A stretch of 64,000 nucleotides of DNA from Amphiscolops sp. MND2022 (lineage: Eukaryota): the NCBI GenBank assembly GCA_964187785.1, contig OZ076409.1, forward strand, positions 40,364,001 through 40,428,000. The letters run 5' to 3'. Below the pieces are notes generated by a model. It did not search any database, was not told the origin of the DNA, and was given only the letters and a program-made list of their open reading frames with translations. The position numbers and the translations under genes are program-made. Positions 9,101 through 64,000 of the stretch are shown piece by piece. Each line of letters begins with the position of its first letter. The stretch's first letter is position 1.

Positions 9101-12100
9101 TAACCGGTACGAAATGGTACCATGGTCCGCTTAGGCTTAAAACTTCTTCCGAAAGCTCGAAACTCCAAATTTACAGTATGTAACGGCAACTGCCCATGTC
9201 AAAATTTTCGAAGCAAAAATTCGTTCAAATCTGACGTGGCACTCAAACATGCTCCAGACGAAAGACCTGTCAAAAAAGCAGATCAGAAATCAGAAATCGC
9301 CCCCGCGAGCGAAGACGAGAAGAGAAGACGTAGAAAACAGTCCCTAGAACACGGTGAAGTGCTCATCTTTGGTCTTTGGCGTTTACACTACATAGGCAAC
9401 GGAAACCGGTGTTCCAGATGCTCGCCTGAAGATCCTGCGGCGTCCTGTGCGGTGACGAGCGCTAGCGCTGGGAAGCCATGGTCAATTCATTCCTACTAAA
9501 AACTCAAACTTCTGATATTGTTGTGCTTGTTGTGCTTTCCTTGTTGTAGTAGATTGATATGCTCGAGAGCTGCCCATTTACATCTATGGTTACCCCTTTT
9601 TGATGTCGATTTTATCAGATTCTCCAATACTATGGCTCTACATCCTCCCGTTTTCAGCCCCCTTTTTAAAGGCTAATTGAGCAGTGGTCTTGAGACATGC
9701 AAGATGCCCGTTACTTTTAGCAATTACAGACTAGGACCAGGCCAGAGAGTTTCCAACAAGACGGTTCCCCCACCTTGGGACTGGCTCCTTCGGAGGGAAA
9801 ATGAGCTAGGGCCGCGGAGATCTAAGTCCCAGATTACATTCGCTGTTCTAGTTCCTCCACTCTACGTTGCGGTTCAAGCGCCAGCGCTTATCGTTACATA
9901 GAACCTCATTTTTTTTGCGACCACAGAGGGATCGTCTTGGGAAGCTTTCCCTAGCGGTTTTTAAAAGATCTGGCCCCCTGGTAATCAGCGCCAAGCCCGT
10001 TTCGACTCTGAAGAAGGAGAGAGAAGCAGAGTTTTGCCCTTTTTTAGTCGTGTGACATTCTACTGGAACTGGGAGAAGCGTTGAACCAGAGAAAACCCGA
10101 AAAAATCACGTTTTCAGGTGCGAAAATGGTATTTTTAGGTGTTTTGGAAGGAAATCGATATTTTTGTGTGATGTGTTGTGTGCCCATCAGCGGGTATCTT
10201 TTTGCAGGTGCTGAAGACCGTAGCACGTGGCTACGGGTGTTTAACAGGTTTTGCAAGCTATTTTCAGCCATTTTATGCCATGCAAGAGGGTGACTGGTGG
10301 ATGGCTGACCATGAACCAGCGAGGCGAAGGGGAAGTCAAATTGTGTGTTGCCTACTTCCTACTCCCATTTCTCGTGGAGACGTCCTAGAGGTATGGTTTT
10401 TGGTGGACAGCAAGTGCAATTGCAGACGATGCTAATGGTCCAACCCGCGTGTCTCTATCTGGTCTGGATGTGGAGAAAAAGCGTGGTGAAGGTGCACCCC
10501 CTGTGACCGGACGCGTCGCTCAAATGGCTCATGGTCGGTGAAATTTTTGAAAATGCACCTTTTTCGACGGGGAATCGTTGGTGCAGGTCAGTAATGTTTT
10601 ATTGTAGATGTAACGACACCCTACGAAGTGCTTTTCTGCAAAAAAGATAGCACTTGCGTGAAAAAACCTTGATTTTGCGTTTTTTTCGTGTTTTTCGTGG
10701 TTTTGAGCACTTGTGCTCAACGGAGCCAGGAAAACTTCATGAAAAGTGTTGTACAAAGCAGCTACAAGGCTCGAGAAAGCTAGTACGAGGCACAGAAGGC
10801 CGTAATTTAGCCTTTGGTTGTGATAAAAGTGCCGATCTAGCACCAGAAAATTGCAAAAAAGTGGAATTTTGACCAAAATGGCACCCAGAAACACAGGCGT
10901 ACACTGGTGTAGAAGTATGAAAAAGCAGTGTACGGTGTTTTGTCAAGCGTAGTAAACCCACGGGACACTAACTGTAACTTTTGCAGCGGATTCAGGCAGC
11001 CTGGGGCTGACACGGTGCAAAAAACCGGTAATTTAAGGTGTTTTTAGGCATAGAAGGTGCATTGTCTGAAAGTCTTGAGGGTGAAGCTTAGTGGACCAGA
11101 GCGAGTCTGAACGCTCTTATTTTCTGTTTTGGCAATAAAAATAGCGCACAGTGGTGAAAACCGCGTGCAAAAATTCCTTTTCATTGCTGAGAAAAGTTGA
11201 AAAACCTTGATTTTTAGTCAGTTTTAGGAGTGTCTGAGTACACAGTTAAAACCCCTTGGGCACTCTATCTTCTTGTTAGCTAGGAGCCTTCGCGCTCTCA
11301 TTTTCTGTTTCTATAATAAAAATAACGCATTGTGGTGAAAACCGCATGCAAAAACTCCCATTCAGTGCTGAGAAAAGTGGAAAAACGCACTGAATCTGAT
11401 CAATTTTCCACAAAACCGGACTGTCTTTGAGCTAGGGTCGGGTCATCGATTCCTGAACCCTAGCCAAAAAGTGGTTGCATTTCCGTAACCACCACAAAAA
11501 GTAACGTTAGTGCCGAAATTTTGGTGGGCGTATCGTTCCCCAAAGTCGAGAAAAGCTCTCTGACGTTTTGACTCCAGAGAAGCTGAAAAAGCCGAAAAAA
11601 TCCAAAACTGCAAGACCGTCAGTGCCTTATATCCAACGGGCACAACCAATTGAGGGTTTATCCCAGTGCTACGGATAGTGGGGCGACACGTTGGTCCCAT
11701 TTTGCCCGCCGTATCACTTTCTGAGGTGATCCTCTTGGTCAATTTGTGAGAAAAGTCGTCAAAAACAGTGTTTTTTTGTGTACAACGTACCTAGTGGGTC
11801 GAAACCTCAAATAAGCGCTCGCGCTTCAATTCGACCTTATCAGTGGCATTATAGGTGCCCACTGGCATAAACTACCAAGTTTGGTGCCGATCTGTATGAT
11901 ACTTGTTGAGAAAATAGAAAAAACGTGGCACCCAAAAAGGCGTGCAAAAAGGCAGTTTTTTCTTAATTTTTCCAAGTAACCCGGGCACCTTAGCCGAAGG
12001 GTGGGGCCATATTGCTGCCCATCATCGTAACCTGTGCTAGTTCCTACGTCGTTGCAGAGAATTTGAGCTTGCTAGCTTTTTTCAGTGGACCGCAATCTTG

Positions 12101-15100
12101 AAAAAGACGTGAAAAACAGTGTGTTTTGGTACATAGTGGTACCGCACGTCTGTACCTAGGCGAAACTGTGTAGAAGGGGCGCAGCTCAAATCTGTGTTTA
12201 TTTTCGTGAACCTACACGTACCTAAGATCTGCTGGTCAATTTTGGGCTTAATACAACGCTCCCAGCGCACACACGAGCCTCTTGAGTGTTGTAGTGCAAA
12301 TTTTGGAAAATCCAAAAAATCTTTGAAATTCTTCCTGTGAGTGACCGGAGACGTTTTGCCCCGAACCAGGTTGATTTTCTGGCCCAGTGTGCTTGTGGAA
12401 AAGCGCTGTGTAAATTTGAACAGCCTACGAGCCTTAAAACGTACTTCGAGAAATTTGGGACGTTGTGAAACAGTCAAATTTCTTAAGTCCGCACCGAGAC
12501 GAGCCCAAAGCTAACAGCGACTCGACAAATCCCGCGTTTTTCGAGGCTTCTTTAAAGGCTACGTCCGAATCATTGACACCTGCTCTGCCATTGGCATATT
12601 GTGTAATGGTCCTACCAGGCCTGGAAAAGCTTGACATGAGTTCGCAATCATGGGTGACCATAGGATCCACAATGGACGGTTCGCATTTTTCAGACGAAAT
12701 GTCTGACGAAGTCACTATCGAGCAACAACGAAAGGAGGAACTGGCCGCCATGGTCCCTCCCTCCGAGGGTTCCGTTGCATCTGGAAGCTCTCGTCGAACC
12801 GAACAATGGGTCGAAGAAACCTGTCGTGAAAGAGCCAATGAAGCAGAAGAAGAGTGGCCCAACTCAAACGTGACCAACGAACTTGCAGCTGAGGAAGGGT
12901 GCTCTCGTGCACCCCTAGGGGAACAAATGAGCTCTCGTCTACAAATTACGGTGGATGAGGATCTGACCTACTCGGAAAACACGAGTGGTGCGAGACCGCA
13001 AGGGACTGGAGTCACTCGAAGTAACCCTAGAGTCTGTGCTTATGGCAAACACAAGAAAGTGCGACCGCCCATGATAAATGTAGGTGAACGTCAAGTTGAG
13101 GTGCCTCGTGAGAGGAGCGTGGCAGGTTCAGTAGCATCATCCCAACGATCTTCGGTGTACAAGGCAGCAATACTGGAAGCACAAGCCGAGACCCAACGTG
13201 CCTTAGCTGAACTGGCTAGCACTCGTGCTGGATGCAATGACCAACACCGTGCCATCGCAGAAAATATGAGAACATTGCAGACCACGATGCGAGAAGGTCT
13301 GCAGGTCAGTGATCAACTGCGAACCGCGCAGAATACGCAGAGCGCTCGCGTAGATGCACTGGGATACAGAATGGGTGAAATGAATGACCTTCTGATGGCC
13401 CGTGAACTTCGTGTGGAAACCCAGATCAATGATTTGAGTAACCAAATGCACACGGTGCTCAATGCTATCAACATCATGAGGCGCGAAAGATCCCTCCCAC
13501 GACAAGCTGGCGCCACTGAAGGTGTGCCGATCGCGGATTCAATGAAGGCCACGGAATCATCGCACCGGAGTCAGGCAACAAAACCCGAGTTGGCGAGCGT
13601 ATTGAAGCCCAGCACCTCCAAGTCGACAACGCCTGAAACCCGAACCAAAGATCCTGTGCCCATCATGGCTGCTGTGGAGCGCAAACCTGCACGGGTGCAG
13701 GTAAGAGGGCCCCACGACTCCTCGTCGATGAGCCAAATAACATCCTCCATAGTTCGAAGTGCCACCCGAGACCAAGGTGTGGACCCGATGTCACCTATCT
13801 ATCTAGATACTTCTACCGACGTTGATTTATCCTGTACTAAGGCCACACTAGGGTCCCAGACTGATGGAGCTGCGTATGTGACGGCCCCTACCATGGTTTC
13901 TGGAACGGACTCCATGTATCGGACCGCTGACTGGACAGCTGAGGACGGGATGCCCTCGGGCGCTCCCTGCGCGAGCAGCACTCGCAGGAAAGAAGACGCG
14001 ACGAACCTCTCGGTGCGAGCTACGCATGGCAGTGACGACGGCACCGATGATGTGGCGCCTAAAGAAGGAGAGGCTGAAGTCATTTCTCCTGAACAATTGA
14101 GGTTCACTGCCGCCATTTCCAAAGCAATGTCCAAAGAACTAGCACCGTTACTTGCGGGACGTGACCTGGCTCAGACCAAACCCAGTGTGTATCGAGGCTC
14201 TAAGGACGGATCAATTGATGGCTGGATCCTAGTGATGCAGCGATACTTAAAGAGAATCCAAACCAAAATCTCGGCCGAAGATCGGGCCTGGAGTATTATC
14301 GGTCACCTCGAGGGTGAGGCTCGCAACTACATTATCAACAAGGCAGAGTCTGAACGTGACGCCCCCGAGAAGGTGTTCGAGCTGCTGTCTAGTCGATTTG
14401 GCGCGGGAGGAAATCGCATGCAGGTGCGGCAGACCTTCCAAAGCCGCGTCCAACAAGAAAAAGAAGACTGGATGCAGTACTTAGACGCTTTAGAGGGTCT
14501 CAGGAGCCAAGGGTTCCCGCAAGAAAGTATCACTACGAAGCGCTATGAAATCCTGCAACGCTTCATGGAGGGTGTGCGAGATCCAGTATTGAGGCGTGAA
14601 CTTGCTATAGTATACGCCTCGGAAACTTTTCTTACCGAACCCCCTACCGTGGAGTCCTTGCGATTTACCACACGTCAGCTGCAACGCAATCGTCCCAGAC
14701 CCACCCAACCTCAACAACCCTATGATCCCCGCTTAGCCATGAGGTCTAGACCTCATCCTTTCGCACCACTACCGCCGAACAAGATGGTTATGCCGCAGGG
14801 CGTCTTGCCACCTCCGGCGCCCCCCCAAAATGTCCCGGCTCCGGCTGTCCCAGCTCCCGTCCGAGCGCCAGTAGGTGCTTGCTTTCACTGTGGGCAAAAC
14901 GGACATTTTGCTCGCGAGTGCCCCAATCGTGACCAGGCCCGAAAACCAATGACCGCCTCCGAACCAGAGGGCGTGAAGGTGACCACGGAAGACACGACCG
15001 ATGGTATCCTTGAAGGTCATCCAGGGATCTATCAATGCGCGAGCTGTGGCCTTTTTGATCAGGCGGAAATGCAATGTGGAGAGCACTCCCATGCGCCGAA

Positions 15101-18100
15101 ACCCAATGAAGAGTTGGCCTACAATCGGTGGGCTGAGGTTGAATCAGCTGGCATCGCCGCGCACACCGTACCTTTGGAAGATGACCGAGTGTTGATGCTA
15201 CACCCAGCGGAACCGCCTGCGTTCCACACTCCGATGACTTTCACTTGTGGCGCTAAGCAAGTTCAAACCTGCTTGGAACCCACAACGTTCGATCCGCAAG
15301 GACGTACACTGATTTCAATTCACCTGTTGCTGGCGGCTGAGCAAACACGTAGGCCGACGCTAACTCTGGCGAAGCTATGGGTCGAATTATCTATCCTCTA
15401 TAAACGAAACGAGTTACCTAGACCGACAGAATGGTACGCTCCGGGAGAGTCTGCGACTCTGACAACGTATTCCCCAGTGCCAGTCTGCGCCTCAATGGAT
15501 GGAGTGGACATGAAGTTCGAAGCCTGTGTGGTGGTGGATGTGTTCCCCCCTGGCATTTGTCTGGGTCCCCAGGAGCTCAAATGCTATAACATCAATCACC
15601 AGGAGCCCACCGGCGAAGCGCGTATAGATGAGCGTGCGTCGCTCGTGGTCTCTTTCGTGGTGCCTCATGCTGCACCTATTCCGCTGCGAGGACTGGTGGA
15701 CACTGGCTCGGGCGTCTCCATACTGACGTTTTCCGCCTTCAATAGAGTGGCAGCTCGAACTGGAACGGTACTTAAACCCTACCAAGTTGACCTGTACGCA
15801 GCCAACGGGAAGACAATAAAAACCTACGGCCTCGCAGAACACATCCATTTCCAGCTGGGAGGATACGAGCTTGAAACGAACTTTGTGGTGGTAGATGACG
15901 CAATGGGCGTGGAAGACTTCCTACTTGGCCGGAACTTTCTTCGCTCCTACCAGGTGTTAGTGGATCTAACATCTATGAAGATTGTGGTGCGAGCACCAGT
16001 GAAGCCCGTGTGGCATCATGCTCACGCACAGGTAGGTGACACTTCAATAGCTACTCCAGTCGTTTTGGACAGTGACTTGGTCCTGCAACCTTTTGAACGA
16101 GCGGTGGCTAGAGCCAAGCTCGTCACCAACGCACTAGAGCCGCTGATTTTTCAAAGCGTAGCACTCAATGCCTCTTTGTCTGACACTACGTTGCACAATG
16201 TCGTCTTTTTAGAGGACAGCGTGGCCACTGTCAGTGAGACAGGAACACTCTTTGTGAGTCTGATAAATCTCACCAGCAACCCTCAACGTATGCGGTGTGG
16301 TGTGCAACTGGGCACCGTAGTACCCGTAACGGTAGTATACCAAGCAGTACCTCAATGTTTGGACTCTCCCACTACAACCGGCACTAAAACTGACGCCGAC
16401 GACAGTCGTGCAAATTTTGTTCATAAAGTTTATAGTGAAGTGAATCTATCTACTGCTTCTGAGTTAACCTCTTCTTCCGAATTTGAGTTTTTGTCCTCTA
16501 CTGACCCTAGCGAAGCAGGACTATCGGAGCGCGAGATTCGCAAACGAACAGACCCAGAGCTAATGGCTCCGATTCCTGGGCCGGAATCTCAGCTCAAGGC
16601 GGTCAAGGATTTGTGGGGCGCTAGCGCCTGCGAATCTCTCCGTAACCTCCTCGATGAATTCGATGAGCTGTTCATGAAGCACAAAGCAGATATCGGTCGG
16701 TGCACTATCGCTAAGCACACCGTGGAGGTGGAACCAGGGGCTGTACCGCATCGCGAAGGTGCTCGCCGGATGTCTCCTGAGAAGGCCGAACGTGCCAATC
16801 AAGAGGTACGGAACCTCTTAGCTCTGGGAATGATACAGCCCTCGCTGTCCCCCTGGGCGAGCGGCATTGTAATGGTGAAAAAGAAAAACGGGGAGTTGCG
16901 CTTTTGCTGCGACTTCCGCCCGTTAAATGAGGTAACTATTAAGGATGCTTATCCCTTGCCCCGCATCGATGAAAGCCTGGCCCGGCTAGGCAAAGCAAAG
17001 ATCTATACCAGCATAGACCTTGCTTGGGCCTTTTGGCAAATTCCCGTGCGCAAAGCGGATCGCCACAAAACCGCTTTTGCTTGCGAGTTAGGACTTTTTG
17101 AGTGGCGGCGAATGCCATTTGGTATGTGCAATGCATCTGCCACGTTTCAACGGTCAATAGCGCGTGCGCTAAGGAATATTGTCAATCGTGAGGGCAGCAT
17201 GGTCATGGCCTACATTGATGATATCGTGATTGCCACAGAGACTGTGGAAGACCATATGGTACGTCTACGTGAAGTCTTTGAATGTCTCCGTGAAGCCGGT
17301 TTCAAAATGCGCGTGGCCAAATGCGATTTCATGAAATCGGAAATCAAATATTTGGGACGAGTGGTGTCCGCAGAAGGAGTGAAGCCCGACCCAAAAGCCG
17401 TCGTCAAGTTGCGTGATTGGGAAATTCCCCGCAACAAGACGGAAATGCAGAGTTTCCTTGGATTTGCCAACTATTATCGCGAGTTCATTCCTTGGCACGC
17501 TAAGCTGGTTGCACCCCTGCACGCCGTCACTGGACTGAATGCCACCTTCGCCTGGGGTCCTGAGCAACAAACCGCATTCAATGAGATCAAAAAAGCCCTA
17601 ATCGAGGCAACTGCGCTCGCGCTGCCTGATTCCGAAGGAGAGTTTGTGTTGGACACTGACGCTAGTGCTGTCGCCATTTCGGGTATCCTGCACCAGTGGC
17701 AAGGTCCCCCGGGTGAACGACGCCTGAGACCGATAGTTTACGGTAGCAAGAAGCTCACCACCACACAAGCCAAATACGGAGCCCCCAAACTTGAAATGTT
17801 CGCCGCTTACTATTTCATAGTGAAGAACCACAGCTATTTATGTCCCCGAAAATTTACCCTGCGGGTGGACAACCAAGCTTTGTCCTGGTTGAAAACCTAC
17901 TCCACGGATCAAGCGTTAATCGGCCGATGGATCATGACCCTGGAGAAATATCACTTTCGCGTGGAACACCGCCCAAGGACCCAACATCGAAACGCCGATG
18001 GCTTGAGCAAACGAACCAACGAGTACCGATGCCGCGAAAAACAGCTTGCACAGCAGCCAGCTGCGGGCGAGCGCTGGAACTTTCTTTCAGCTGACGAATT

Positions 18101-21100
18101 TGATAAACTACCTGTTGCCCCATGGTTCGACCTTCAGGGTCGAGTCATCCCGAACCATCCCGAGTTACCTGCGCACCTGCAGAACTTGGAGCCTAAGGCT
18201 CCCGACCAATTGCTACGCGTACTTCGCCGCACCAAACGAACGAGCAGGAGGGACAGACAAGCGAAAGCATTCGCAGCCCCTTTGCCACCTCCGCCTGCCC
18301 TTGCTCTGCAACTGCACGAGGATGCCTATCCAGACTACCCTGAGGATTGGATTGATGTGACTGATGAAGCACGCGAAGATTATCTGTTGCCAACGCATGC
18401 CGTAAATGTTCCCTCGCGTACCGTCTATGCCATTGCCGGGGTGAATCCTGTGGCGTTGCAAGGTACTCCCTCGGGTGTGCGCGACTCAATTATGGCTCTT
18501 AAAGATATCAACACTGAACTTCACGAACATGCTCACACCGTGCATGGTATCAAAGATTTGGTTCTAGCCCAAAACCGTGATGTTCACGTGCTAGCACTCA
18601 AAAAGTTGGTGCTGAACGAATCTATTGATCACGACGTGTTTCCCGAGAACGTGCGTGAGTTCGCACGCAACTACTACCGCCAGAAGAAAACCCTCCTGTT
18701 TATCAACAAGAATGGTGTACTTTGCGTACAATACCCTCCCAACCAACGTCCCCTGCACGAACGTCCGTGCATGATCGTCATGCCACAACTGTACCAGCAT
18801 GAGATTTTATTCCGCGCGCATGACGCTATGGGACATCAAGGTATCTCCAAGGTGGTGGCTAGGATTCAAGAACGTCACACATGGCCTGGTATTCGGCGCA
18901 GCGTGGGCCGTTACGTTGGCCAATGCCTCACCTGTCAACAAGTGCGGGATAAGCCTGGTGACGTCCGATTCCATTTAAAGAACATCCAGAGCGGATACTT
19001 CAACGAATTGGTTCAATATGATCATCTGAAAATCTGCCCCTCAGACAGTAATAACACTGGCATCTTGGTCATAATTGACCATTTCTCCAAGTTCGCGGAA
19101 GCAGTGCCCTGTAGTCATCATGACTACGACGCTGTGACTACCTCTCGGTTACTGTTGCAAAAGTGGTTCGCCCGTCATGGCACACCCACTAGGATGCAGT
19201 CTGACAATGCCCCTAATTTGACTGCCGAGGTGTCCAACGAATTCCTAAAAGCAGCCCACGTTACCAAAGTAACCTCTACAGCTAGCCATCCGAGAACCCA
19301 AGGCTTGGTCGAGCGCCAAAATCGGACGCTGCTGACCCTACTGCGAGTTTTTTGTTCCCGCCGTATGCGCGATTGGGACCAATGTCTTGATGAGGTCATG
19401 GGTGCCTACAACTCTACGAGGCACGCTACCACTGGCTTCTCTCCCTATATGCTGACCCGTGGCGTAGAGAAGGCCATCCCTCTCACGTTCCTGTATCCCG
19501 AGTTTGCAGCCAAATCCTTCGAGTCGCATGAGGCGTATGTCGATCATGTATTGGCTCGCCAACAAGAAATACATGACCTGGTACGGCGTAACACGCACCA
19601 AGCCCAATTGCGTCAAAAATTGAAGTACGACCGTGCTATACAAGCGCGAGCTTACCAAATAGGCGAGCTCGTCTGGGTTTTTTGCCGCTACGTACCGCAA
19701 AAGGGTTCCCCGAAATTGATGCGTGCTTGGCGAGGCCCGCACAAAGTGGTACAAGTTTTTCAGGACGGTCGTGTCTATGTACTAGACACAGGTCAAAAGG
19801 TTCATTTTGAGCGTCTTAAACCGCACCACAGTGGCCCCCTTGAACTTGCTACTGCACACTCGGACAGTGGTGAGGTGGTGGTCCTCATGGACCCCGAACC
19901 TGAACGTTCCGTCGACGTAGTTGATGACGACAAGTCCTTATCGTCGTATAAACCCGAACAACTACTTTCAGAGGCGTCCGATGCATCTTTGCCCTCACGC
20001 CGACGTCACTGGATGGACACTCGACTACGCACGAAGCTTCGCGCAGGCGGCTCCCGCCCGCATTATCAGCAATTTGACTATTCGACATCGGGTACAGACG
20101 ACGAACTATCCGATGCCATGTTGCCGATACCTCCTAATCCAGTGAACGAGGATCTAGTGGAGCCTGCGGCTCCTCCGACTACGCTGGATCAGTCGATATC
20201 CCCTGCCCGTGTATTACCCCAGCTGTTCTCTGACCATGAGCGCGTGCGCTCACCGTCTCCGCAAATATCCTCTGAAGAAGAGACATCGTTACCAGGAACC
20301 TCAGCATCCTTGTTAACGAATCCCTCGCTAACCAACTTTCTTAGTAACTATCCCATATGGCCGACCGCCCCTCCGATCCCCCTCAAATCTGCCAGCAGCG
20401 ACAGCGACGTTCAGCCCGATCTGCCTGATGCTCCCGAGACTTCGCCAGGAGCGGGGACCGCTCCTTCTTTTAAAAGGGGGAGGGGGAGACCACCCAAGGC
20501 ACAGAAGAAACGGCTGATTCGAGCGAAGGCAAGAACGAGGAAGAAAGAAACACCGAGAAAAACCGAAACTGAAACTGCGATCCAGGCTGAAACGGAAGCT
20601 CCCAGAACTGCAGAGACGCTAACAGAAGCATCTGCAACTGCTCTTAGGTATCAACTAAGGAGTAAGCGACAGCCGCGCTACAAGTGTGGAACCTGCGGGC
20701 TGCGAGATTGTGTCTGCTTATTAGCTGTGAATGAGAACCGGAGGGTTCCCATTGGAGCCCGGGGAGTTCCTCCGGAAGAGAGAGAAAACTTGGTGTACCG
20801 CCTCACGGTGCGGGCCGAAAAAACCTACTCAGCTGTAGAGCGGTCCGGAGACTACCCTGTGGACACTATCCTGGAGAAGTTGTCACTGCCTGGGGTAGCG
20901 AAGGCCCCTTGTCCTAGGTTTAAGGAGTGGACGAGCGATGGAAAGGGCCTGGAGTTTACCCTGCCCACGGTGTTGCCCCCCGTGCCTAGTAATATTGCGT
21001 TTGGACCATTCAATTTTGAAAGGGAACCTGTGCAGATGGTCCGATGCATCACTGCTGACTTGTTGTGCGACAAGTATGGAGTCCAGGTGGAACCAGGAGG

Positions 21101-24100
21101 GGTATACAGCCCGGCTCCTCACTGGTGGCTGCTGGTAACAGCTCCACGAGTGGAGGCGCTGGTAGAACCGTTGAATCTGTTATCCTGTCTGGAGAGTTTG
21201 AGGACCCTCACCACTGTGGACTTAATACTTTGCTTCCATATCATAGACTGGTACCGAGGCAAAATGAAGTTCGCGTGGTGGCTGGAACTAATAATCACAT
21301 GTTTCGCCACCTATCCCAGAATTCGACTATTAGATGAGTGGACTCACACTTTCGAGATCCCCTTGTTCCCTAAAGCCGCCCTGGGAACTTTAGACGCGTG
21401 GGTAAAGGCCGGCAGCGACAATCGAGCGATGCCCCGCTCAGTGTGGCAAGACCTGGCTGCAATCCAAGGGCGTACCCCTCGCGTGTGTCTGCCCCCCGAT
21501 AATGGTCCCGGACGAGAGATTGTTTACCCGGGAGCCCTGTATCCGAACTCAGCCGAACACGTCTCTTACGATGAATCCGATTTCTTGCAGGCCGAGGGCG
21601 ACATAGTGTTAGCATGCCCTGCTGACCTGAAGACCAACTCTGCCGCCCTTCGATATGTGCTGCGGGAGTGCGGCATGGAAGATGTATTTGCCTTACGACC
21701 TAAAGTGGGCGAGATTCTCACTATCCCGCCCGATGTGAACCCCAACCCCAACCAAAGTATTCACCTGTTAATAGTCCGTGCTAACCAGCGCGCACCGCTG
21801 CTGACAGACGACTACTTGCGTTGCATGGCGCACTTGACACAGCGCCTGATTGATAAAGGATCCACACGGGTCCACCTACCGATTCTGGATCCCGAGAGAC
21901 CGGCTTTCTCGTTGGTTAACCTGTACCATACTCTAGCGAGCATGTTCGAGGGTACTGGTATTTACGTGGTTTTGCATAGCCGCGTATATGTATCAATATT
22001 AACTATAGGGCTGAAGTAGCCTTTTCATTTTAGTTGTCCCCATTTTTCCTTTGCCCTCAGTTCTTGTATCAGTTTTTGTAACAACCTTGGAAGAGCCTTG
22101 AAATGCTCTCGAGATGTTAATTTGTCATGTTGTTCACTCAAGGTTTTGTTCTAGTTCGTTAGTTAGTTAGAGTTAGATTTTAAGTTTGTAGTGGCCCCTT
22201 TATGAAGCCGGCGTAGCCTGGCTGCAATTGAGGGACGAACCGACTCACGGCTCGTTCCAAAGAGAACTTATCCCTGTAAGTTTAACAGTGGTCCTTTTTA
22301 GACCTATGCATTAATGGCCCATTGCCCTAACAATTCAGCGCCTGCAACCGGGTCTAATAGTGCAAGGCCCCAGGAATCTGCGCGAGCGCAGAGGGTCAAT
22401 CAGGCCCAATATGTCGAAGACAGGCTGCGGGACGGTCTTTCGCCAGTAGCCGTAGCTGGAGTGGCCGCCCTACTGACCCAGCTTGAATCGATGCAAATGC
22501 TGCCAAATGCATCTCTATCAATCACCACGGAGGTGGCAAGCTATCGTCGCACCTTGACGTGCACCAACAATGCCTGGGATGGGCACGATCTGACTCACCA
22601 GTTCTTGGACGAAAGATCAATCGCAGTGCATGGCCCCAGCCAGGGCACCAGATTCGAACAAGAAACATCACTGCGCATGATGCCCGTCAACGTCCCATCG
22701 CTGCCTCCCATTGCGGCACCAAATCCAGTGCAGACGACGCCGCATTCTAGCTCGATTGCTTATGGGGCACCATATGGAACCCGGGCAACGACGACGCAGA
22801 ACATTACCAATCAACCTGCCTCAAGTCGGGAGCCCTCGGGGTCCCAACCGCCATCAGTGCCTAATCTAAATCTGATTGGACGGAGTCCCAGCGAGCAAGC
22901 GGTGATTGTGGCCCTGCAGGCTGTCGCCAACTACCCCAACTCCTCTGACTTTGTTCGTGCCGTTGAGCAAAGGATTCCCGGATTGACACACTACTTGCAA
23001 GCTGCCGCTCAGCCCTCGGGCTGCGTCACCCCACCCACCACCCTAGCCGAAACTGTGTCTATGGAAGCAGAAACTATGGCTGGACCAAGCACCAGCGCCA
23101 TGACCTATCCCCGTGAGGAAACTGGCCGGAAGCGACTTACTGAGGAAAACATCATCGCTACACGCCATGATTCCGTGACCGACAGTCCGACCAGTCGTCC
23201 CCCTCCGGACAAGCGAGCAGATGTACCCCACCAGTCGCAGATGAAAAGTGTGGTGGTCGTGAGGCCTCCATATCGCGTTGGCCACCTAGGCGTAGGCGCG
23301 CCTCAGATGTCCCTGGAAGAGGCCATCAACCGCTACGGCAGTGTGGAGGCGAATCCTGAAACGAGTCCTGTGCCCTCGGGCACAGGCTCTGCCAACATGT
23401 CCTTGGAGGTGTCCGAGACCATTGATGAGAACAATCCTCCCGCCTTTCTTCCCCCGTCCGATGACGTATCCGGCACAGTGGTGACTGGCGATAGCAAACG
23501 CATCTGGATGGCGGCGGAGTGTTTGTACCCGAACGCGTGTGCGATCAGAAGGAGGGCACCGCCGTCTGACGCCGACCAGAAAGAAGTGAGCAGGATCACC
23601 ATTGCGGCTCAGATAACTCGGTCGTTGCGTGCCCGTGATGCGGACATGAGTGAGCAAGCCTGGGAACAGCGTGCTCGAGAGCAACTGCCCGCGACACCCA
23701 ACAATTATATGGCTCGCCTGCAGCATGACCTCGCCGAGCAATTTCCTGCTAGGTACATGTTGCACGAAGGGGAAACCTGGGAAGCCAACGCCCGCTATGC
23801 TCGCAACATCGAATCAATGAAGCCCCTTCTGAAAGCGGCCCTGCAGCGTGCGCGCTACTGTGTGGCAGTGGACTCGACACTTAGGAGTGATCTCCCCATC
23901 GACAACCTTCTACCCGACGTGCTGGTATTAACAATGCCACTCTCCCGCTTCGCTGAGGTTGCCGAGATGGTCGCGGTCATGTATGACCCTAACTTGAGAG
24001 GATCTCTAAGAGAGCCGCCCCCGCGACGTGTGATCTTCACAAATCTAATCGACCACATGGCTTGTGAAGGGGTGCTACGCAATCTGGATGCCCTCATGGC

Positions 24101-27100
24101 AGATACCCGCAGACCTGGGAGCGTAGCGTCCTTAGTGAATGTGGTTGCAGATGCAATGGAGCGTGCAGCAGGGATCCTTCGGGGTCGTCTGGGAGCGCTC
24201 GCGCTCTTCGCATCCCCGCCGGGATTCATGTATTGGCAACGAAGCTTGCAGCAATTTGTGTACATCCTGTCTGAAGTATGCAAAGCGCGCCGAATCGAGT
24301 TCGCTATTTGCGCGCCAAATCTGCGAGTTGATCGAGGAGACCTACGCCCAGATGCATTGTCATACCCCGCCTTCTTTGCTGCCGTGTCAAGAGTACTAAT
24401 CGCTGTGGAACGATCAGGAAATGCACAACTGACTATCGACGACGCCATACTGTTCGATCATGGAATGTGCATGGGGCGAATGGCCTTCGATTTGGACGGG
24501 AATCGCGTCATGCGAGCATCCAACATGAGTGAACGAGAAGCCGTCCGACGATACAACTGGCTGGTGCGGAAGGACAAAGAAATCCCCGTACGAGCAGAGC
24601 TGGCAGAGCTCGTGAAGGAAATTGAGACCTGGCCTGCCACACGCACGGTCGAAAGGACCATTCCCCAGATTCGGTTTGCCGCGGGAATAGAACCCGTCAA
24701 GTTGCCCGTGGGCATGAGGTACGTCGTGGCCATAGAGGCGACCAACTTGAAGGCTGAAGTAGATGCCGCCGGAATAACGTATGCCGAATGGTATCAGTCC
24801 AGATTCGTGGACAGGACCCTGGCAGAGGTAGCTCAAGAGCTTAACTGTCCCTTGGAAGCCTTTTGTACCAGTCTCGGACTAGGCTGGAACATCGACGTAA
24901 TAGCCTCTGAGTACTTGCTCACCAATGTGCAGACCGACAAATTGTTGGAAACCATCGGCGAAGCTACTGTGGGAGAGATGTTAGCGCTCGCGCTAGCCAT
25001 GGGCCCGACGAAGTTTGTGGCAGGTCCCCTTGCTATGTTAGTCGAGTTGGTAGTGTCTAGTGATCTAGTCACTTTCTACAGCTACCTGATCCTCGCGCAG
25101 GGACAATTACGCAGCCTAACTCGATGGGGTCACCTCCTAAATTCCAAGGACCAGCAAGACTATGTCGCCCAGCTAGAACGCATGCGTGCGTCCCTCCAAC
25201 ATTGGTTGTACTCCACCCTAGTGTTCGCCTCTGGCTTGTTCGTAGGCGTGGATCAATCGCAACCCCTTCACCATTCCGAGCGTCAACTCCCTGCGGAAAC
25301 GGCGGGATTCCCCATGCCCCAGCAAATCGCCGATTTGACTCTGGCCGAAGTGGAGGACTTCGTGGCCGTTATGGCTTCCGTCCTGGCTCCAATCTTCGGT
25401 GCGGTCGGTGTGTGCCGGTATCCCACCAAACCACTGGCGAGAACAGTACAGGTGCATATGGTCTCCTTCTGCACCTATCTCCAAGGACGGCCCCCACTGA
25501 CCTATCAGCGAATCGTGCAGGCTGTATTGAGTGGCGAGATGCCGCACGGGTACACCACCTTGAAGTCGGAGAAACAACTAGAAGAGAACTTGATGGGTCT
25601 GTTGCGTGCTCGTACACGAAAAGCGTGCCCCTTGCCACGAGAATACGGCCCAGTCAACTGGTACTCCGCACCACTCAGCCTGAATGGAGTCCCCTTTAGA
25701 TTCCCCTGGTCGCAGGAGTTCATACGCAAGGTGATCCGAGCCAGCATTAGTGCTGGTCCACCCGTAGATCCCCTGTACGCCTTCAAATGCATCACTTTCC
25801 CAAATCACTACTGGAAGGAGCCACTAGGATGGCCTAGGGCAAAACCCGTTGGTCGCGCCCCTGAAGCCTTCAATCGACAAATCCAGTATATGGAATTGAC
25901 TCAAATCCCAAACTGGATTGAAGGAGCAGCTCAGACTCGCCAGAGAAACCTGCAGAGCCGTGTGACTCCGTTCCCAAGAAAAGCTGCCTGGCGACCGCAA
26001 GCCAAGATGACGATGTCAGGGGATATGTCCATCGTCCAACATGATGAGGTTAATTCTGTGCTAGGCTCCGAAGCCCGCGCGGAGTGGGAAGGACATTGTT
26101 TGGAGCTGGAAATTGCCAGCTTCCCCAAATGGAAGCGAGCTTGCGAGCTCTGGAGTCAGCCCGGCTGGGTCTCCAAGCGGATATCCTTGGCCGTGGAGAG
26201 TAGAGCTGAACTCGAGAGACAACAGGCGTTCGCGCCTACCATGCTGGCACCCACAATGGCCATGTCGCTAAGTCAGCCCATCGACCGACCCGTGACTCTG
26301 GATTTACCCACTCATATCCTGCAGGCAGAGCCTGTGAGTCCACCATCGACACAAGCCAGCCCTCGGTCATCACAACCCCAGACCGGAGAACACGACGCTG
26401 AACTGACCCCCAACACTATCCTGGTGCAGCCAATCGCCGATTTGACGCTCCCAGAGGACCTGTCCGACTCGGAAACAGTAGTTACTGTGATTCCTGCTCA
26501 ACGCAGAGCGTCAGTTGCGTCGGAAGATGCCAGCAGTCCAGGAGCTCCCAATGATGCCATAAAGAATCGAGCTCGACGCAGCTCAGCCCAATAAACCCTG
26601 CCGCCAATGGGAGCGTTCGCGCTCCCTATAGACTCTAAACTCTACCAAAACTGTGCCTTCAAACTTATTGCTTTAGCCGGTGCTACCCCTACTTGGTGCA
26701 AATTTTTGTTCATAGTTATTACTTAGTTATTGTACTGTTAGTAATGCGCTGGGTGTACGGTCAATAGAGTGCACCTGCCCCAGCTGCTTCGCCTACAAAG
26801 TAAAAAAGAATCTATTACCAAAGAAAAACTATTATTTCTGTTGCGCACCGTTCGCGGTGTTTTTGAGTTGCCATGGTCTAGAAAAAAGTCTTAGCCTTTT
26901 AGTTACGATTTTTGCCGTTTTTTTTGTGTTTTGGTGCTCAAGCACCTTCTATCGACTGTCTAAGGAGTAGCCGATGCGGCGCGCTCCCAAAAGAAGTTTT
27001 ATGTTGTTCGAAATTAATCGAAAACTGTAAATGACAAGTTGCACGAAAAAGGAAATTTTAGCTGACCTTGGTCGCAAAAGAATTTTTAGCGAAAACTGCT

Positions 27101-30100
27101 TGCCCAAACGAGTTTTAACCGACTGAAAACCTTAGCTCTCGAGCTGGTGCTAAAACCTCGTTTGCACTTTTTGTAAAAATACCAGGCAGTAAAATTTTCT
27201 TTGAAAAAAACAGCGAAATTTGTCAAAAATAGTTACTGAAAAACAAGGACTCGTCCTTGTGCCCTGTGGTGTGGATGATGATCCCCAGCAGTCTCAGCGA
27301 TGCCGTTTCCAGACGAGGCCAGATGCCGCTTGCCAGGGACGACAAGCCAGAAGCCCGGGGAGTGATGTAACGGCAACTGCCCATGTCAAAATTTTCGAAG
27401 CAAAAATTCGTTCAAATCTGACGTGGCACTCAAACATGCTCCAGACGAAAGACCTGTCAAAAAAGCAGATCAGAAATCAGAAATCGCCCCCGCGAGCGAA
27501 GACGAGAAGAGAAGACGTAGAAAACAGTCCCTAGAACACGGTGAAGTGCTCATCTTTGGTCTTTGGCGTTTACACTACATAGGCAACGGAAACCGGTGTT
27601 CCAGATGCTCGCCTGAAGATCCTGCGGCGTCCTGTGCGGTGACGAGCGCTAGCGCTGGGAAGCCATGGTCAATTCATTCCTACTAAAAACTCAAACTTCT
27701 GATATTGTTGTGCTTGTTGTGCTTTCCTTGTTGTAGTAGATTGATATGCTCGAGAGCTGCCCATTTACATCTATGGTTACCCCTTTTTGATGTCGATTTT
27801 ATCAGATTCTCCAATACTATGGCTCTACATCCTCCCGTTTTCAGCCCCCTTTTTAAAGGCTAATTGAGCAGTGGTCTTGAGACATGCAAGATGCCCGTTA
27901 CTTTTAGCAATTACAGACTAGGACCAGGCCAGAGAGTTTCCAACAAGACGGTTCCCCCACCTTGGGACTGGCTCCTTCGGAGGGAAAATGAGCTAGGGCC
28001 GCGGAGATCTAAGTCCCAGATTACATTCGCTGTTCTAGTTCCTCCACTCTACGTTGCGGTTCAAGCGCCAGCGCTTATCGTTACAGTATTTTCCATGTTG
28101 TAGAAATTCAAATTAGCGGTTCATTCACAGAGCTGTCGTTTTATTATTTTATTTTGGTTAACACTTAGATGATGCCAACAAAGTTGAAGAGGATTATTCT
28201 TTCCACTAAGTTTTCAGCTGAAACTCAGACATTAAGAGTAATTGTCTGCAGATGCTACAATCAAAAGAGTTTCGTAGCCAATGAATAAACCGTGATTAGG
28301 TTATTCTGAGAGAAATTTTCTTCAAAAATATTTTTTGTAATTGATTGTAAAAGTCGATGATAGTAACTATGTTATGCAAAAGTTGCAGTTAGTTATCATT
28401 ATTTCTCTTAAATGTTATCTTCAGCATAACGTTCCTTCAGCTATCAGTTTTGTGAGACTAATCAAAGTTTGCCATTTTAGAGCCGCAAGACTTCGCCAGT
28501 GGTGTCGCGATTGGAACACCCACCAGCGATACAGCTACTTTCACGGGAGCCAGAGTTGCGGCTGGAACCGGAAAAGTTCAAGCAAGCGCCACTTCCACCA
28601 CTTCTGGATGTACTGACAAGCCGAGTCATATCGTGGATTCCTTCACTTTGAGCCAGACTGCGAGTTCGTTCCAAGTCAGTGGGTTGGTGCCTGGATGCCC
28701 TTACGCATTCACAGTACAACCTGTGTGTGTCAATACCGACAACTCGGTCGTGGCTTCGACCAATAGCTATACAGCTACTCGTTGTACTACACCATCTGAA
28801 CTTGATACCAATCCGATGACTCAAACTTTAACCAGTATTACTCTAACATCCGTTTCTGTGGTTTCTGGTGTATACTATGACCTTCTTGTTTCATACACTG
28901 CGGGATGCACTGGTGGAACAGCCTCCTCGGACGAAGCAGTGACGTCATACCCCAAAGAATTTACAAGTTTGAAGAGTGGGTGTCTCTACACATTCTCATT
29001 GACCCCACGCTGCAGTCTGGTTGAAAGCCCAACTCAGAGCTCTGATTACGTCACGGGGCCGGTGAAAACTGTCAAACAATGCACTAGTAAGGATATGTTT
29101 GTTCCCATTCATAGGCATACACAAGTTTGAAATGAATGAATGCTCCCATGAATTGCTGGACAAACGCACGTGCAGTTTGATACAAGTAATTACAGGTTCC
29201 TCAAGACCATAAATTCGACATATACACACCAATTTCACAGAAGTGTCCTGAGGATATTCATGGATTTGAATTTGAAAAATCGCAAGTGTTCACGTTATTC
29301 AGATGTGGTTAAAAAATGACTGGCATTGCTCGATGCTTGTCACGAGTTCACTCGAAAATGGATATCAAAAAATGTTGTTCCGAGCCAAAAATATCTTCAG
29401 GTTTGTAATAAAAACCGCTATACCTTTTTCTCACAATAGTAATGTTACTGTTACCATCAATTTGAACCGTCAAAGTGAACCTCTTAGTCAAGTTCGTAGT
29501 AGAACTGTTAAAGCTCTTCAGCGTTTCCCCGTATTTCATATCGGGTTTTCTATCTGTTTTCCCAATTTTTACAATTAATTTATGATTGAATACTTTTTTG
29601 TTTAAGAACCTGAAGCGCCAACTTTGGGATCTATTTCAAGCGTTGATACAAGCGCTTTCACGATTTCGTCAATAACAGTACCCTCAGACACCTACGCAAA
29701 CACTTATGACATCTCTGTGGCGTGTGGAGGTACTGAAAAAGATACTGAGAATGTCAACCATGGCACTACAAATGTTCAGATGACAAACCTTGTGCCCGGA
29801 TGCAAACATGCTATAACAACAACAGCCCAATGCAAGGATGGCAACACTGTTATGACTACCAGTGAGAGCACCGTTGTCAGCCAGTGCACAAGTTGGTGAA
29901 TATTACAATTATTTTTTTAGTTTTAAACAAACATAGTTGAAGAAAAATAAAGTTGAACTTTTCAAACTCATTCAAAATGTTCATTTTTTCAACTATTACT
30001 ACTGAACCAATTCAGAGGTTTTAATGACATCACCTGAATTAAGTAGCTTCTGAAACATTGAAAATCTTTGCTCCTGTTGATTTCTTTTCAACAATTATTG

Positions 30101-42100: not shown

Positions 42101-45100
42101 TTGAATAGTTTAAATAGATTCTGATAGATTGAATAGTTAACAAGACGGAAACGTCTCAAGTGAGCCTAAGATTCAAAAAGCGCAAATTTTTTAAAATATG
42201 CTCAAGGTTTTTTTTAAAATAAAATTTTACGAATATAAGAGTGCCAAAAGTATCCAAAGGGAGCCTCTCGTTCTCAGAAAATGCCTTTCTATCACTAAAA
42301 ACATCAAAAATGCAAAATTGGGGAACGCTTTTCCTGATTTTTTTTAAAAAAATCGCACTGTGTCGAAAAAACAGTAAAACCAAAAAGTAAACTTGAATTG
42401 TCTAATAACGACAAAACCTTAAAAAACTATGGTAGCTGTAGTAGACGTGAAAAGAACAGTTAGAATAACAATGAACTGAAATACTACTATTTACAAACAC
42501 CTGCTAAAATGCTAGAGTCTGATAAATTACGATCATTCATTTGCTGTTGCCTTTGTATTGAGTTTAGTACGTAATTCATTCTTAACTCTCAAATTCTTCT
42601 TGCTTCGCAATTATACCCTTCAACATGGCGCTGCGAGCATCAAACTCGTCAAATACTTCTACTTCCTCGCAGAAAGATGCAATTCCTTCATTACTTCCGG
42701 GATTACCACTGTTCTGGCCGCACGCAGACAAACCCCCTGCGATGGAATGGGAACGATGGATAGACCTATTCGCTGTGGCTGTGATGGCCAAACATTCGAT
42801 ATCAATAGATGAACTGACAAGAACTGTGGATGAGGGTCATCCCAGGGTAAAGGCGCTAATAGGGGATATGCCAGAAGAAGCGGCTGAGAAGAAAGTCGTA
42901 ACTTGGCTATTCCTGTCAGTTGGCGAACCGGCACGAAAACTCTTCAAGGATAAATATCCAGAGCTGTCAGTGTGGACATTACAGACCAGAGAGATGTTGC
43001 AAAGATGCGAGAATTGCTTCCACATAGCAAGAAACAGAACGTTAGACAGACACAAGTTTCTATCCAGAAAGCAGCAAGCAAACGAATCGCTACAACAGTT
43101 TTGGCATGCGCTAAACGGCTTGGCCTCCAAATGCGAATTGGGGGAAATCACCCAAACACTAGTGCACGACGTCTTCATTCTAAACATGAACAACAAGAAA
43201 GTGCAGGAGAAGTTGTGTGTGGAACCATTTAATGAACCCCAAGAAGCCCTTCAATACGCCATATCCTATGAAGAAGGCATAAAAAGACAAAGATCCATGG
43301 GAATAGGAGCGGCAGAAGGCTCAAAACCAGCAATAAAGACCGAACTGGTATGTGCTGTGGATAAGAGGAACAACAGAGAATGCTTTCGATGTGGTGTAGG
43401 CAATTTCACAACCGACCACATAAAGAAATGTCCAGCAACAAATCACAAATGCGAGTTCTGCAATATAACCGGACATCTGGAAAAGTGCTGCAATCAAAAG
43501 TGTCCGGAGAGAAAAAGGCAAATGAAGCAGAGGATGCAAAACCGCAGAAAAAGATTTTCCCGGGTACATTACATATCCGAAGATTCAGACGAAGAACTGG
43601 ACGAAGATGAAATGGTCTTGTAGGTCGATGGAACAGGAGTGAAACCGTTCGAGATTGAAGGCTTGATGTGTGGCAATAAATTCAGAGCCATAATCGATAC
43701 GGGGTCGCCTGTCTCGATATTTGCGATAGACGAATTGAGAAGAATAATTGGAAGACGATGGCTAGTCGTCAGAGACATGATCGACGGCGAGATATATGTT
43801 GACTTCAATCGACGCCCACTTCCGTTATTGGGATATATGTTTGTCAGCATCCAAGTAGGAAAAACAAAAATGTCAAAAGCAAGGGTGCTGGTGGCAAAGA
43901 AAGGAGCTAAATCGATCATTGGACGTGATTGGCTGACAGCGCTGAAATATAGAATCGAACCACCAATCACAAAAGGTGAGAACGCTGTAAATAGCATTTC
44001 CCGCGAAAGCGACGAATCAGAAAATAAGCTAAGTCGGGACGCGCAGCAATTAGTTCAAGAGTTCCCAAATCTATTTAAACGACGCGGCAGAGTAAACAAT
44101 TATAAAATCAAAATTGAAATGAAAGACGGCACGCGATTTACACAGCAGAAAGGACGTAGAAATCCAATCCAATTACAAGATCAAGTTGATAGCGAAATAA
44201 CGAATCTTTTAGATCAAGGACATATTGAAAGAGTAGACACGATAGAAGATGATGTTTTCATACAACCAGTTGTAATAACGGTAAAGACAGATCGATCTGT
44301 AAAAATAGCTTTAGATGCAAGGGCGCTGAATGACTCGATTGCAAAACATAAGTACCAGATGCCAAATCTAGAAAATTTGATGGATATGGTTGCGGAAAAA
44401 ATCGACGGAAAAGAGGGTCAAGTTTTCTACTCGTCGGTAGATATGAAGTACGCATACGGACAAATTCCGCTAGATGAAAGTACGGCAAAACACTGTAACT
44501 TCCAAAATAATAGGCGGAAAATCAACTGGTACATACAGATTTGTATAGGGGCATTACGGACTAACAATAATGCCGACCGAATTTCAGAAAGTAATGGACT
44601 TAACACTTGTAAATATGGATAGTACATTTGTATTTATAGATGATATTTTAATTGTTACAAAAGGTGAAAAAAGTGTACATATGCAAAAAGTTCGGGAAGT
44701 ATTAGAAGTGTTAGACAAAGCCAACTTGCAACTGAAAGCCGATAAATGTAAAATAGCGTGTACAGAAATTGAATGGTTGGGATACAAATTATCAGGTGAA
44801 GGCGTAACCCCGATAAACGGCAAAATCCAAGGAATTAGCGAAAGGCTAAGACCGAATAATTTGAAGGAATTGAGATCCTTCTTGGGGGCGGTCAACCAAT
44901 TGAATAAATTCGTACCCGACCTAGCAAGTATTTGCGCACCGTTTAGATCGATCCTAAAGAAAGAAGCAGAATGGAAATGGACAAAGGAGCATGAAAAAGC
45001 CTTTTTAAAAATAAACCAAGAAATAAAATCGATAACGGAATTGACACATTTTAAAAGAAACAAGAAATTAAGAATTATTTGCGATGCAAGCAAACAAGGG

Positions 45101-55043: not shown

Positions 55044-55816
55044 TGTAACGGCAAGCTCTGGTACAGCAATATCAACCGATTTTGCAACTTTGACATGTTC
55101 AGAAATTTTGTCAAAAATTCTAATCCGATGTGTGACGTGGCACTGAGCATGTGATTGCTCTTTTCGCTGTTTCCACGAAATTGGCAGGTACTTCGACAAC
55201 AAAGAGCAAGCACGAGCAAAAAGACGGGCGCGCCGCCATGACAGAAGCCAGAGACGGCAAGAACATCCGAAAATAGACTCTTTTTGAGGTGCTAACACCG
55301 GTTTTATCGATTTTCAGCATTATGCTACCCTATGTAGCGGAAACCGTAAAAATGAGTCTTTTCGCCTAAAGATCCTTGTTTGGTGCTTGGAGCCCCTCCG
55401 CCCCAGCTTTTTAGCTGTGTGGTTTGCCATATTCGTGCCTGTTTTCATGTATTTTCAGTGATTTTGGCTGTATTCAGTAGCGTTAGCGCTAGTTTAGATC
55501 TTATTCCCCAATTTTAGATCTTATTAACATTTCACCCTGGAACTGGAAATTTACCTTATTCTTGGCATTGTTTTTATATGCTAGTTAAGCGGTGGTCTTT
55601 AGAGAGCCAGAAAGATGCCCGTTACTATTAGCAATCAAAGACTAGGACCGGTTGGACAGTATTCGTCGAAGCACCCGCGGCCCCGGGACGTATTTCACCC
55701 CTGGAGGCAAAATGGATCTGTGGCGATGGGCGCCTGTCCCGATCGAATCACCCATTCCTGCAGGTTCCTCCACCTCTGTTAACGTGTTAAGCGACCGATA
55801 ACTGCTTGCCGTTACA
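55044..55816 (+). repeat. 5' LTR of element 3 (773 bp)
   Basis: Perfect 13-bp terminal inverted repeat TGTAACGGCAAGC / GCTTGCCGTTACA. Shares blocks with the element 1 LTR (TGACGTGGCACT; AAGATGCCCGTTACT.TTAGCAAT). Followed by a PBS. The partner LTR is outside the window. Confidence 0.85.
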
Positions 55817-55831
55817 TGAGACCTCATTTTT

Positions 55832-55849
55832 TGGCGACCACAGAGGGAT
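55832..55849 (+). promoter_or_regulatory. Primer-binding site of element 3, probably tRNA-Arg
   Basis: TGGCGACCACAGAGGGAT. Confidence 0.75.
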
Positions 55850-59850: not shown

Positions 59851-60397
59851 AAAACGCCAGAAAAACTATCAGAGTAAATCCTCAATACTTCCGCTGTACA
59901 GGAGGCAGACCCAAAAAGCCTTCATTTTCCAACGGAACGGACCCAATAGACCTTCCTGGGTGCAAACGAGGCAAATCCCACGGTTCAAAAAAATTGCCGG
60001 CAGGGGTCATAAATTTTGGACTCCTCTGGAACTTTGAAATTTGATCCTGAACAGTTCAAGGCAGCAGTTTTAAAGTGCCTGCGACGCACTCTGGGCTACA
60101 TTTTCCAAACGAAAATCTCTAGGAGTTACCTGGAGCAGGGTTTTCGATATCCGAAAGAGACCCTGAGTGTTCCGACTTAGCCAAAATCACAAGATTTTGG
60201 GAGGAGCAACTTCCTAGTGACGACAAATTTGAGCGGATTGCCCGAGTGTGACACCTTTTTGAACACTCTGGTGCCTCATTTTGGTGTTATTTCGCTGTAT
60301 CGAGTAGCACCAACGCCGAATATTACGCCAAATTTGCAGAGAACTCTTTTTTGGGCAATTGCAAAATACCCAAATCTCTCGAGGTTGAGAGGCGAAG

Positions 60398-63300: not shown

Positions 63301-64000
63301 TGCTCGTAGAATGTCTCCTGACAAGGCGGAGCGCGCCAATCAAGAAGTACGCGCAATCTCCTGGCTTTGGGCATGATCCAACCTTCGCTATCACCTTGGG
63401 CGAGTGGGATTGTGATGGTAAAAAAGAAAAATGGGGAGTTGCTATTCTGTTGCGACTTTCGCCCCCTCAACGCTGTCACAATAAAGGATGCGTATCCCCT
63501 CCCACGCATCGATGAAAGCCTTTCACGCTTGGGTAAGGCCAAGATTTACACCAGTATTGATTTGGCCAGGGCTTTCTGGCAGATACCAGTGCGCAAAGCA
63601 GATAGGCAGAAAACGGCCTTTGCCTGCGAGCTGGGTTTGTTTGAGTGGAGACGTATGCCCTTTGGGATGTGTAACGCTTCAGCTACTTTCCAGCGAGCCA
63701 TAGCGCGAGCGCTACGGAAAATTGTGAACCGTGAAGGAAGCATGGTGATGGCGTACATTGACGACATCGTCATTGCTACCGAGACAGTCGAGGACCACAT
63801 GGTACGCTTACGCGAGGTATTTGAATGTCTGCGCGAAGCTGGCTCCAAAATGAGAGTCGGTAAGTGCGACTTAATGAAGTCGGAAATCAAGTACCTGGGA
63901 CGTGTGGTCTCTGCCGAAGGTATCAAACCTGATCCTAAAGCAGTGGCAAAACTACGCGATTGGGAAGTACCGAGGAACAAAACGGAGATGCAAAGCTTTT
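60398..64000 (+). pseudogene. gag-pol: Disrupted gag-pol of element 3 (partial)
   Basis: Gag YRGSKDGTVEEWLLVM. TGA at 62252 replaces the Gly of protease DTG. 2-nt insertion near 63352. RT continues from 63355 with YIDD at 63754. Confidence 0.93.

Follow-up and report, generated by a model that had tools for sequence, protein, structure and literature searches.

Results

Organization of the retroelement

The window, i.e., the whole stretch of 64,000 nucleotides analysed here, carries an 18.9-kb Ty3/Gypsy element (9179-28085) bounded by two identical LTRs. Its features are as follows.

9179..9898, + strand: 5' LTR, 720 bp, TGTAAC...GTTACA, with the GTA target duplication just 5'
12438..22019, + strand: Gag-PR-RT-RH-IN frame, a single frame of 3193 codons stop to stop
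20472..20498, + strand: presumed AT-hook-type motif KRGRGRPPK, RGRP conserved in homologs
20649..20660, + strand: YxLR motif (YQLR), resembling the foamy virus Gag YNLR core
20679..20717, + strand: CxxC-x4-CxC cluster, predicted zinc site
20985..21344, + strand: D1, predicted macrodomain copy, the more degenerate one (aa 2850-2969, motif HIIDWYRG)
21555..22001, + strand: D2, TARG1-type pseudo-macrodomain (aa 3040-3188), last domain of the 3193-codon frame; R at the K84 position at 21777, loop PILDPERP (21879-21902) and an additional C-terminal strand, HSRVYVSI
22302..26594, + strand: ORF2, 1430 codons, no family assigned
27366..28085, + strand: 3' LTR, 720 bp, identical to the 5' LTR throughout, with GTA just 3'

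The order of Pfam domains in the 3193-codon frame (zinc knuckle, protease, RT, RNase H and integrase) was that of Ty3/Gypsy, and the nearest relative of the RT-RH part in the PDB was yeast Ty3 (E 3e-65). TG...CA LTRs, a CX2CX4HX4C knuckle and a GPF/Y-type motif in the variant form WRGPH were further Ty3/Gypsy traits of the element. No Pfam chromodomain match was detected at the Pol C-terminus at E values up to 1, and the tail was modelled as macrodomains, not as a chromodomain. A previous sequence-only reading of this DNA had described a macrodomain attached to integrase. The domain indeed lies in the same Pol frame at its C-terminus, but the attachment is not direct, as approximately 700 residues separate the integrase core from D2, consisting of a GPH/SH3-like part, a disordered linker, short motifs and the second macrodomain copy D1.

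ORF2 gave no match in Pfam, ESM Atlas or PDB. It was found in one sister family at 28% identity (the ORF of L070), where the central region is conserved, and is missing from the family of the second element in the window; by eye only, it resembles SGNH. A primer-site-like stretch starting with TGG is located approximately 14-16 bases past the LTR end, not adjoining it (window 9899-9930), and this offset was seen in the window family as well as in the second element. The latter, belonging to the same lineage (55044-64000, continuing in L066), has a 773-bp LTR and the target duplication AAT, and carries D1 and D2 in an interrupted frame without ORF2. The region 42437-47760 holds an unrelated, interrupted Gypsy-type element with LTR-like repeats of 99% identity.

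Fold of the C-terminal domain D2

The six peptides from which a TARG1/Poa1p-type macrodomain had been proposed were all found in the frame 12438-22019, at residues 3042-3180 of 3193 (VSYDES begins at 21561 and LHSRVY at 21972). When a profile of 59 D2 family members was searched against the PDB, five TARG1/C6orf130 sequences were detected (E 6.5e-16 to 8.9e-16) and the next match appeared only at E 0.81. The profile alignment spanned residues 7-144 of the TARG1 chain, in agreement with the proposed collinearity. The alignment-based model of D2 showed a mean pLDDT of 87.4, and TARG1 ranked first in all three PDB structure searches: Foldseek, the check suggested in the sequence-only reading (E 8.3e-9, TM 0.84 by target length), VIA (Z 17.2, rmsd 2.0 Å, 136 aligned) and a third search (Z 15.9). 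It was followed by DarG (Z 14.4), BT1257-type and Poa1p domains. The family profile and the alignment-based model thus bore out the proposed fold, and D2 is, as judged from both, a TARG1-type macro alpha/beta/alpha sandwich.

The D2 segment alone gave no match in Pfam, and neither did its single sequence in a phmmer search of the PDB, while Pfam over the 59 members gave one weak Macro match (E 0.3). The fold predicted from the single sequence (pLDDT 57) again placed TARG1 first, but at E 0.016 and with a VIA Z below 6. In ESM Atlas, the best matches (0.91) were to three clusters without names and of mainly viral content; a cluster containing Macro domains followed at 0.89, as a lead only. A look-up of clusters yielded neither taxa nor informative names, and a search for longer fused homologs recovered 12 close relatives only.

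Alteration of the pocket and catalytic residues

The TARG1 residue numbers used here were taken from the profile alignment, and the counts refer to 25 non-redundant D2 members below 70% identity. K84, D125, the GxG loop and a TARG1 sequence pattern are named in the accessible text of PMC6397177. The sequence-only reading had pointed out that MGAGIA and GCGLD are lost and that LITK reads LIVR here, and the catalytic motifs were indeed altered. The catalytic Lys84 was replaced by R in the window and in 23/25 members, and the catalytic Asp125 by P in the window and by P, G or S in 22/25. The GxG diphosphate loop was also replaced, with D121 in all 25 members and E123 in 18; E123 is not universal, as four members have G at this position. 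R124 was found in 21/25 and P35 in 17/25, and D37 was kept in 20/25; S35P and G43A represent additional loop changes. R84, D121, E123 and R124 form a new conserved signature. A widened form of the pattern in PMC6397177, TKx(30-40)Px[IL]GxGxD, matched 0 of 157 D2 sequences (many near-identical), whereas 36 of the 45 macrodomains examined from the remaining Gypsy lineages of this genome conformed to it. The alignment indicates that the catalytic pair is lost in D2.

According to the accessible text of PMC5928194, the G123E substitution in human TARG1 abolished both ADP-ribose binding and catalysis and stabilised the fold, and the variant still bound RNA and localised to nucleoli. By its sequence, D2 naturally bears this laboratory null, and the effect of G123E in TARG1 predicts a blocked ADP-ribose pocket in D2. 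This bears on the earlier proposal of an ADP-ribose reader or decoy, in which the catalytically dead domain would steer integration to PARylated chromatin or sponge PARP signals. The fold and D37 are retained, and motif-intact TARG1 domains at the same place in other elements make ancestral ADP-ribose handling likely. However, most members carry the substitution reported as a validated binding null in PMC5928194, all have D at G121, the changes G121D, S35P and G43A alter the loops, and the surface is net acidic, so that we consider a reader or decoy improbable. The accompanying suggestion that the domain counters PARP-based defence in the manner of viral macrodomains found no support, given the loss of both binding and catalysis described for TARG1-G123E in the same source.

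D37, R84, D121, R124 and the H-x-R strand could line the old pocket and provide a new ligand or active site, which might accept, e.g., ADP-ribosylated nucleic acid or some other nucleotide derivative. In favour of such a site, the polar residues at positions 121, 84, 124 and 37 are fixed, at the frequencies given above, over members 24-80% identical, and DarG is the next fold match. Nevertheless, D and E stand in place of the glycines giving room to the diphosphate, the nucleophilic lysine is absent in 23/25, and D1 keeps only the D...R pair of the signature, which fits a structural role. A remodelled active or ligand site accordingly appears rather improbable.

The isoelectric points of the D1 and D2 domains were 4.9-6.6 (8/8), while those of other lineages were at least 8.8 in 9/11 domains, and the acidity of D1 and D2 argues against polyanion binding. 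Binding of RNA, whether to package the element genome or for nucleolar routing, has a parallel in the pocket-independent RNA binding of TARG1 and would agree with the RNA binding and nucleolar localisation kept by TARG1-G123E (accessible text of PMC5928194), but RNA binding of TARG1 is ascribed to basic patches and both domains are net acidic here, which makes this role highly unlikely. A metagenomic fragment (P0167) keeps K84, G123, L124 and D125, yet has D at G121; as it branches first in the derived clade, its sequence marks it as a possible intermediate.

A probable second macrodomain copy upstream

D1, located just upstream of D2, had been missed by the sequence-only reading. Comparison of D1 with D2 by hhalign using non-overlapping alignments gave a probability of 91.9 (E 7e-7), compared with 1.45 for the reversed control, and the value reached 95.5 when distant rows were added. 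The order of beta strands and alpha helices of D1 within the tail model matched that of a macrodomain, and the D2 profile detected a weaker upstream copy in 8 of 15 distant fragments, some of them 24-25% identical. The clean D1 profile alone detected neither D2 nor intact macrodomains, D1 gave no match when compared directly with TARG1, and the A4 profile reached TARG1 via D2 only. Whole-model matches spanning both copies were weak (8ufm, Z 7.1; 4d86, Z 10.7; rmsd > 10). On the sequence comparison, D1 and D2 are tandem duplicates. The duplication likely took place after derivation of the domain, because D1 is closer to D2 (92-95) than to motif-intact macrodomains (probability 44-70).

Motifs upstream of D1 and selection on the tail

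The motifs preceding D1 were surveyed in 61 long homologs, mostly of one family, with three families represented. RGRP, within what we take to be an AT-hook, lies at most 160 aa upstream of the Cys cluster in 60/61, and strict YxLR is present in 60/61, a four-residue motif being weak evidence alone. The Y-x-L-R core is common to the tail and to foamy virus Gag, whose YNLR core contacts the acidic patch of H2A-H2B through a motif with invariant Y537 and R540 and thereby directs integration, according to the accessible text of PMC12125541 and PMC6042332; by this likeness of sequence, the tail might bind nucleosomes.

The host genome (1.07 Gb) yielded 3471 candidates, and the 150 of them that were scored were all 95-100% identical to D2, many sitting in full 3193-codon frames; the family of the window element is present in high copy number and has been active recently. 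The key sites read R/D/E/R/P in 30/30 closest copies. Conservation of D2 in sister elements, a check named in the sequence-only reading, was supported among family members, and both macrodomain copies persist in families whose tails share 41-57% identity. In comparisons with two sister subfamilies, pN/pS was 0.07 and 0.07 for D1 and 0.19 and 0.12 for D2, with bootstrap intervals below 0.42, and the constraint on D1 was about equal to that on the integrase C-terminal domain (dN/dS 0.03-0.06). Both D1 and D2 are under purifying selection. A neutral, decaying relic was rejected on the low pN/pS of the two domains.

The tandem domain might be released by the element protease as a counter-defence or anti-silencing protein that binds a host factor, like the macrodomains of the SARS-unique domain (SUD). 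A low-complexity linker of approximately 290 residues between the integrase C-terminal domain and the tandem domain, the presence of tandem and SUD macrodomain structures among the weak matches spanning both copies, and the large unexplained ORF2 would be compatible with release. In contrast, rapid evolution was not seen, with D1 constrained much like the integrase C-terminal domain, and no cleavage site was identified in the tail; we therefore regard release as unlikely.

Other macrodomain-bearing Gypsy lineages in the genome

A Pfam Macro search of the genome gave three matches in long frames, one of which (L035) showed intact motifs and matched TARG1 at E 1e-26. The search seeded with L035 (150 scored of 1378 candidates) led to 14 loci, in which the macrodomain lies after integrase (11), between RNase H and integrase (1) or in a Gag-protease frame (2). 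Single TARG1-type domains after integrase were seen in L064 and L104-L114, the domain between RNase H and integrase in L103, and those closing a Gag-protease frame of 834 codons in L102 and L115. The element formed by L064 and L071, with a motif-intact macrodomain, has an extra frame of 783 codons with a hydrophobic start before the 3' LTR, which by eye is possibly envelope-like.

In the macrodomain tree (midpoint root, without outgroup), 25 derived domains were separated from 11 other domains at 100/100, and three lineage-B domains having E123 and lacking K84 nested among the motif-intact ones. The pocket was likely lost twice, because these lineage-B E123 domains nest among intact ones. The macrodomain of the lineage-B subgroup evolves faster, with an uncorrected pN/pS of 0.44 and 52% identity, compared with 97% in RT. 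This subgroup (L086, L095, L106 and L110) shows independent loss of K84 together with E at G123. The RT tree, which has an implausibly long inter-lineage branch and was built with L103 left out, supports only the distinctness of the lineages.

Target duplications and insertion sites

Exact 3-bp target duplications were found in 26 of 32 insertions of the tandem-macrodomain lineage. The window copy is flanked by GTA (9176-9178 and 28086-28088), and exact 3 bp, none longer, was observed in 17/20 further copies of its family (18/21 including the window copy), in 3/6 copies of the second family and in 5/5 of the third (copies among loci L116-L173). The insertions without such a duplication had mismatched, truncated or unpaired ends. 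Among 13 elements of other macrodomain-bearing lineages, 5 bp was found in eight by script and in one more by eye, the rest being unclear, and the E123 element L106 has a 5-bp duplication. Since the other lineages including L106 give 5 bp, the 3-bp footprint tracks lineage, not pocket loss as such. The accessible text of Kojima 2025 (PMC12440569) gives 3-bp duplications for Troyka and 4-6 bp for other LTR elements; the latter is a typical trait of non-Troyka LTR elements and not a taxonomic criterion, and the tandem lineage departs from it.

Insertions occur on each of the 13 large contigs, no tRNA genes were found at the flanks of 40 loci, and a central A/T bias was the only preference at the insertion sites (24/26, p 0.0008). 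There was no sign of narrow targeting.

Discussion

Proposed role of the tandem macrodomains

We propose, with a probability of roughly 55%, that D1-D2 is a non-enzymatic docking module in the integrase tail that tethers to chromatin. The ancestor would have had a functional TARG1-type eraser following integrase, an arrangement that other Gypsy lineages of this genome retain. G121D would have arisen first, then K84R, G123E, L124R and the loss of D125, and the derived domain would then have been duplicated to give D1 and D2. In the present element, the AT-hook, the arginine anchor of YxLR and the Cys cluster may hold the integration complex at nucleosomal DNA. The partner of the acidic pair D1-D2 would be a protein, either a host chromatin factor or an element protein, not ADP-ribose. 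A chromodomain-like role in target-site selection, as suggested in the sequence-only reading, is conceivable; the neighbouring motifs fit chromatin tethering, but the broad spread of insertions gives no sign of narrow targeting. A wider scenario, which we advance only tentatively and regard as doubtful, would be that Gypsy elements here repeatedly captured TARG1 erasers, implying an ADP-ribosylation defence, and twice turned them into pocket-blocked pseudo-enzymes, one tandem pair becoming a new integrase targeting module with a 3-bp stagger otherwise described for Troyka alone.

A single genome offers a natural series from motif-intact TARG1 domains on Gypsy elements to pocket-blocked ones that likely arose twice. 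The series makes two questions testable, namely whether ADP-ribosylation serves animals as a defence against LTR retrotransposons and which function remains to a TARG1 fold without ADP-ribose; the small soluble domains suit both.

Comparison with known systems

No paper on Gypsy macrodomains, including the tandem pseudo-enzyme form, was found in the mainly open-access literature searched. Poa1p-like domains have been annotated in databases for certain Gypsy proteins of arthropods. Macrodomains in retroelements as such are known from fish endogenous retroviruses (PMC4977317, accessible text), and the tandem pseudo-enzyme form and the 3-bp Gypsy footprint were not found in print, as far as our search reached. 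A non-Troyka 3-bp Gypsy footprint was likewise not found in the literature searched, and Repbase and supplements could already list such elements.

With Troyka/Kuafuortervirus, the tandem-macrodomain lineage shares the 3-bp target duplications. The accessible text of PMC12440569 describes Troyka as having CG...CG ends, a CX2CX8-10HX4C knuckle, no GPF/Y and LTRs of 100-400 bp, whereas the window element has TG...CA ends, a CX2CX4HX4C knuckle, GPH at the GPF/Y position, and 720-bp LTRs around an interior of 17.5 kb. Its termini, knuckle and sizes led us to reject membership in Troyka. By combining a 3-bp footprint with TG...CA ends, the lineage forms an exception to the 4-6 bp stated for non-Troyka elements, and annotation tools requiring 4-6 bp duplications would likely miss the tandem-macrodomain family.

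Chromoviruses, Gypsy elements with a C-terminal chromodomain, likewise end Pol after integrase with a captured cellular fold (PMC12440569, accessible text). The window element differs in having a macrodomain pair in place of the chromodomain, and its targeting role is only putative. Fish epsilon-like endogenous retroviruses also combine a retroelement with a macrodomain, their macrodomain ORFs being reported in the review PMC4977317 citing Basta et al. 2009; these are retroviruses with macrodomains as additional ORFs, and the accessible text of the review describes no degenerate or tandem form.

The closest systems to D2 are TARG1 and, grouped with it, the Macro-2/Poa1p-like clade with DarG and Poa1p. 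Macrodomains of the SARS-unique domain are not known to bind ADP-ribose. This coronavirus domain (PDB 8UFM and 6YXJ, the latter a complex with Paip1) offers an analogy, its macro folds being reused for protein binding, but belongs to another macro clade and an unrelated virus and matches weakly in structure (Z 6-7). Human TARG1/OARD1/C6orf130 (PDB 4J5R and 2LGR) has the same fold as D2 and is collinear with it, D37, T83 and P118 being largely kept. D2 differs from TARG1 by S35P, K84R, G121D, G123E, L124R and the loss of D125, and in being acidic, extended by an extra C-terminal strand, duplicated and fused into a retrotransposon polyprotein.
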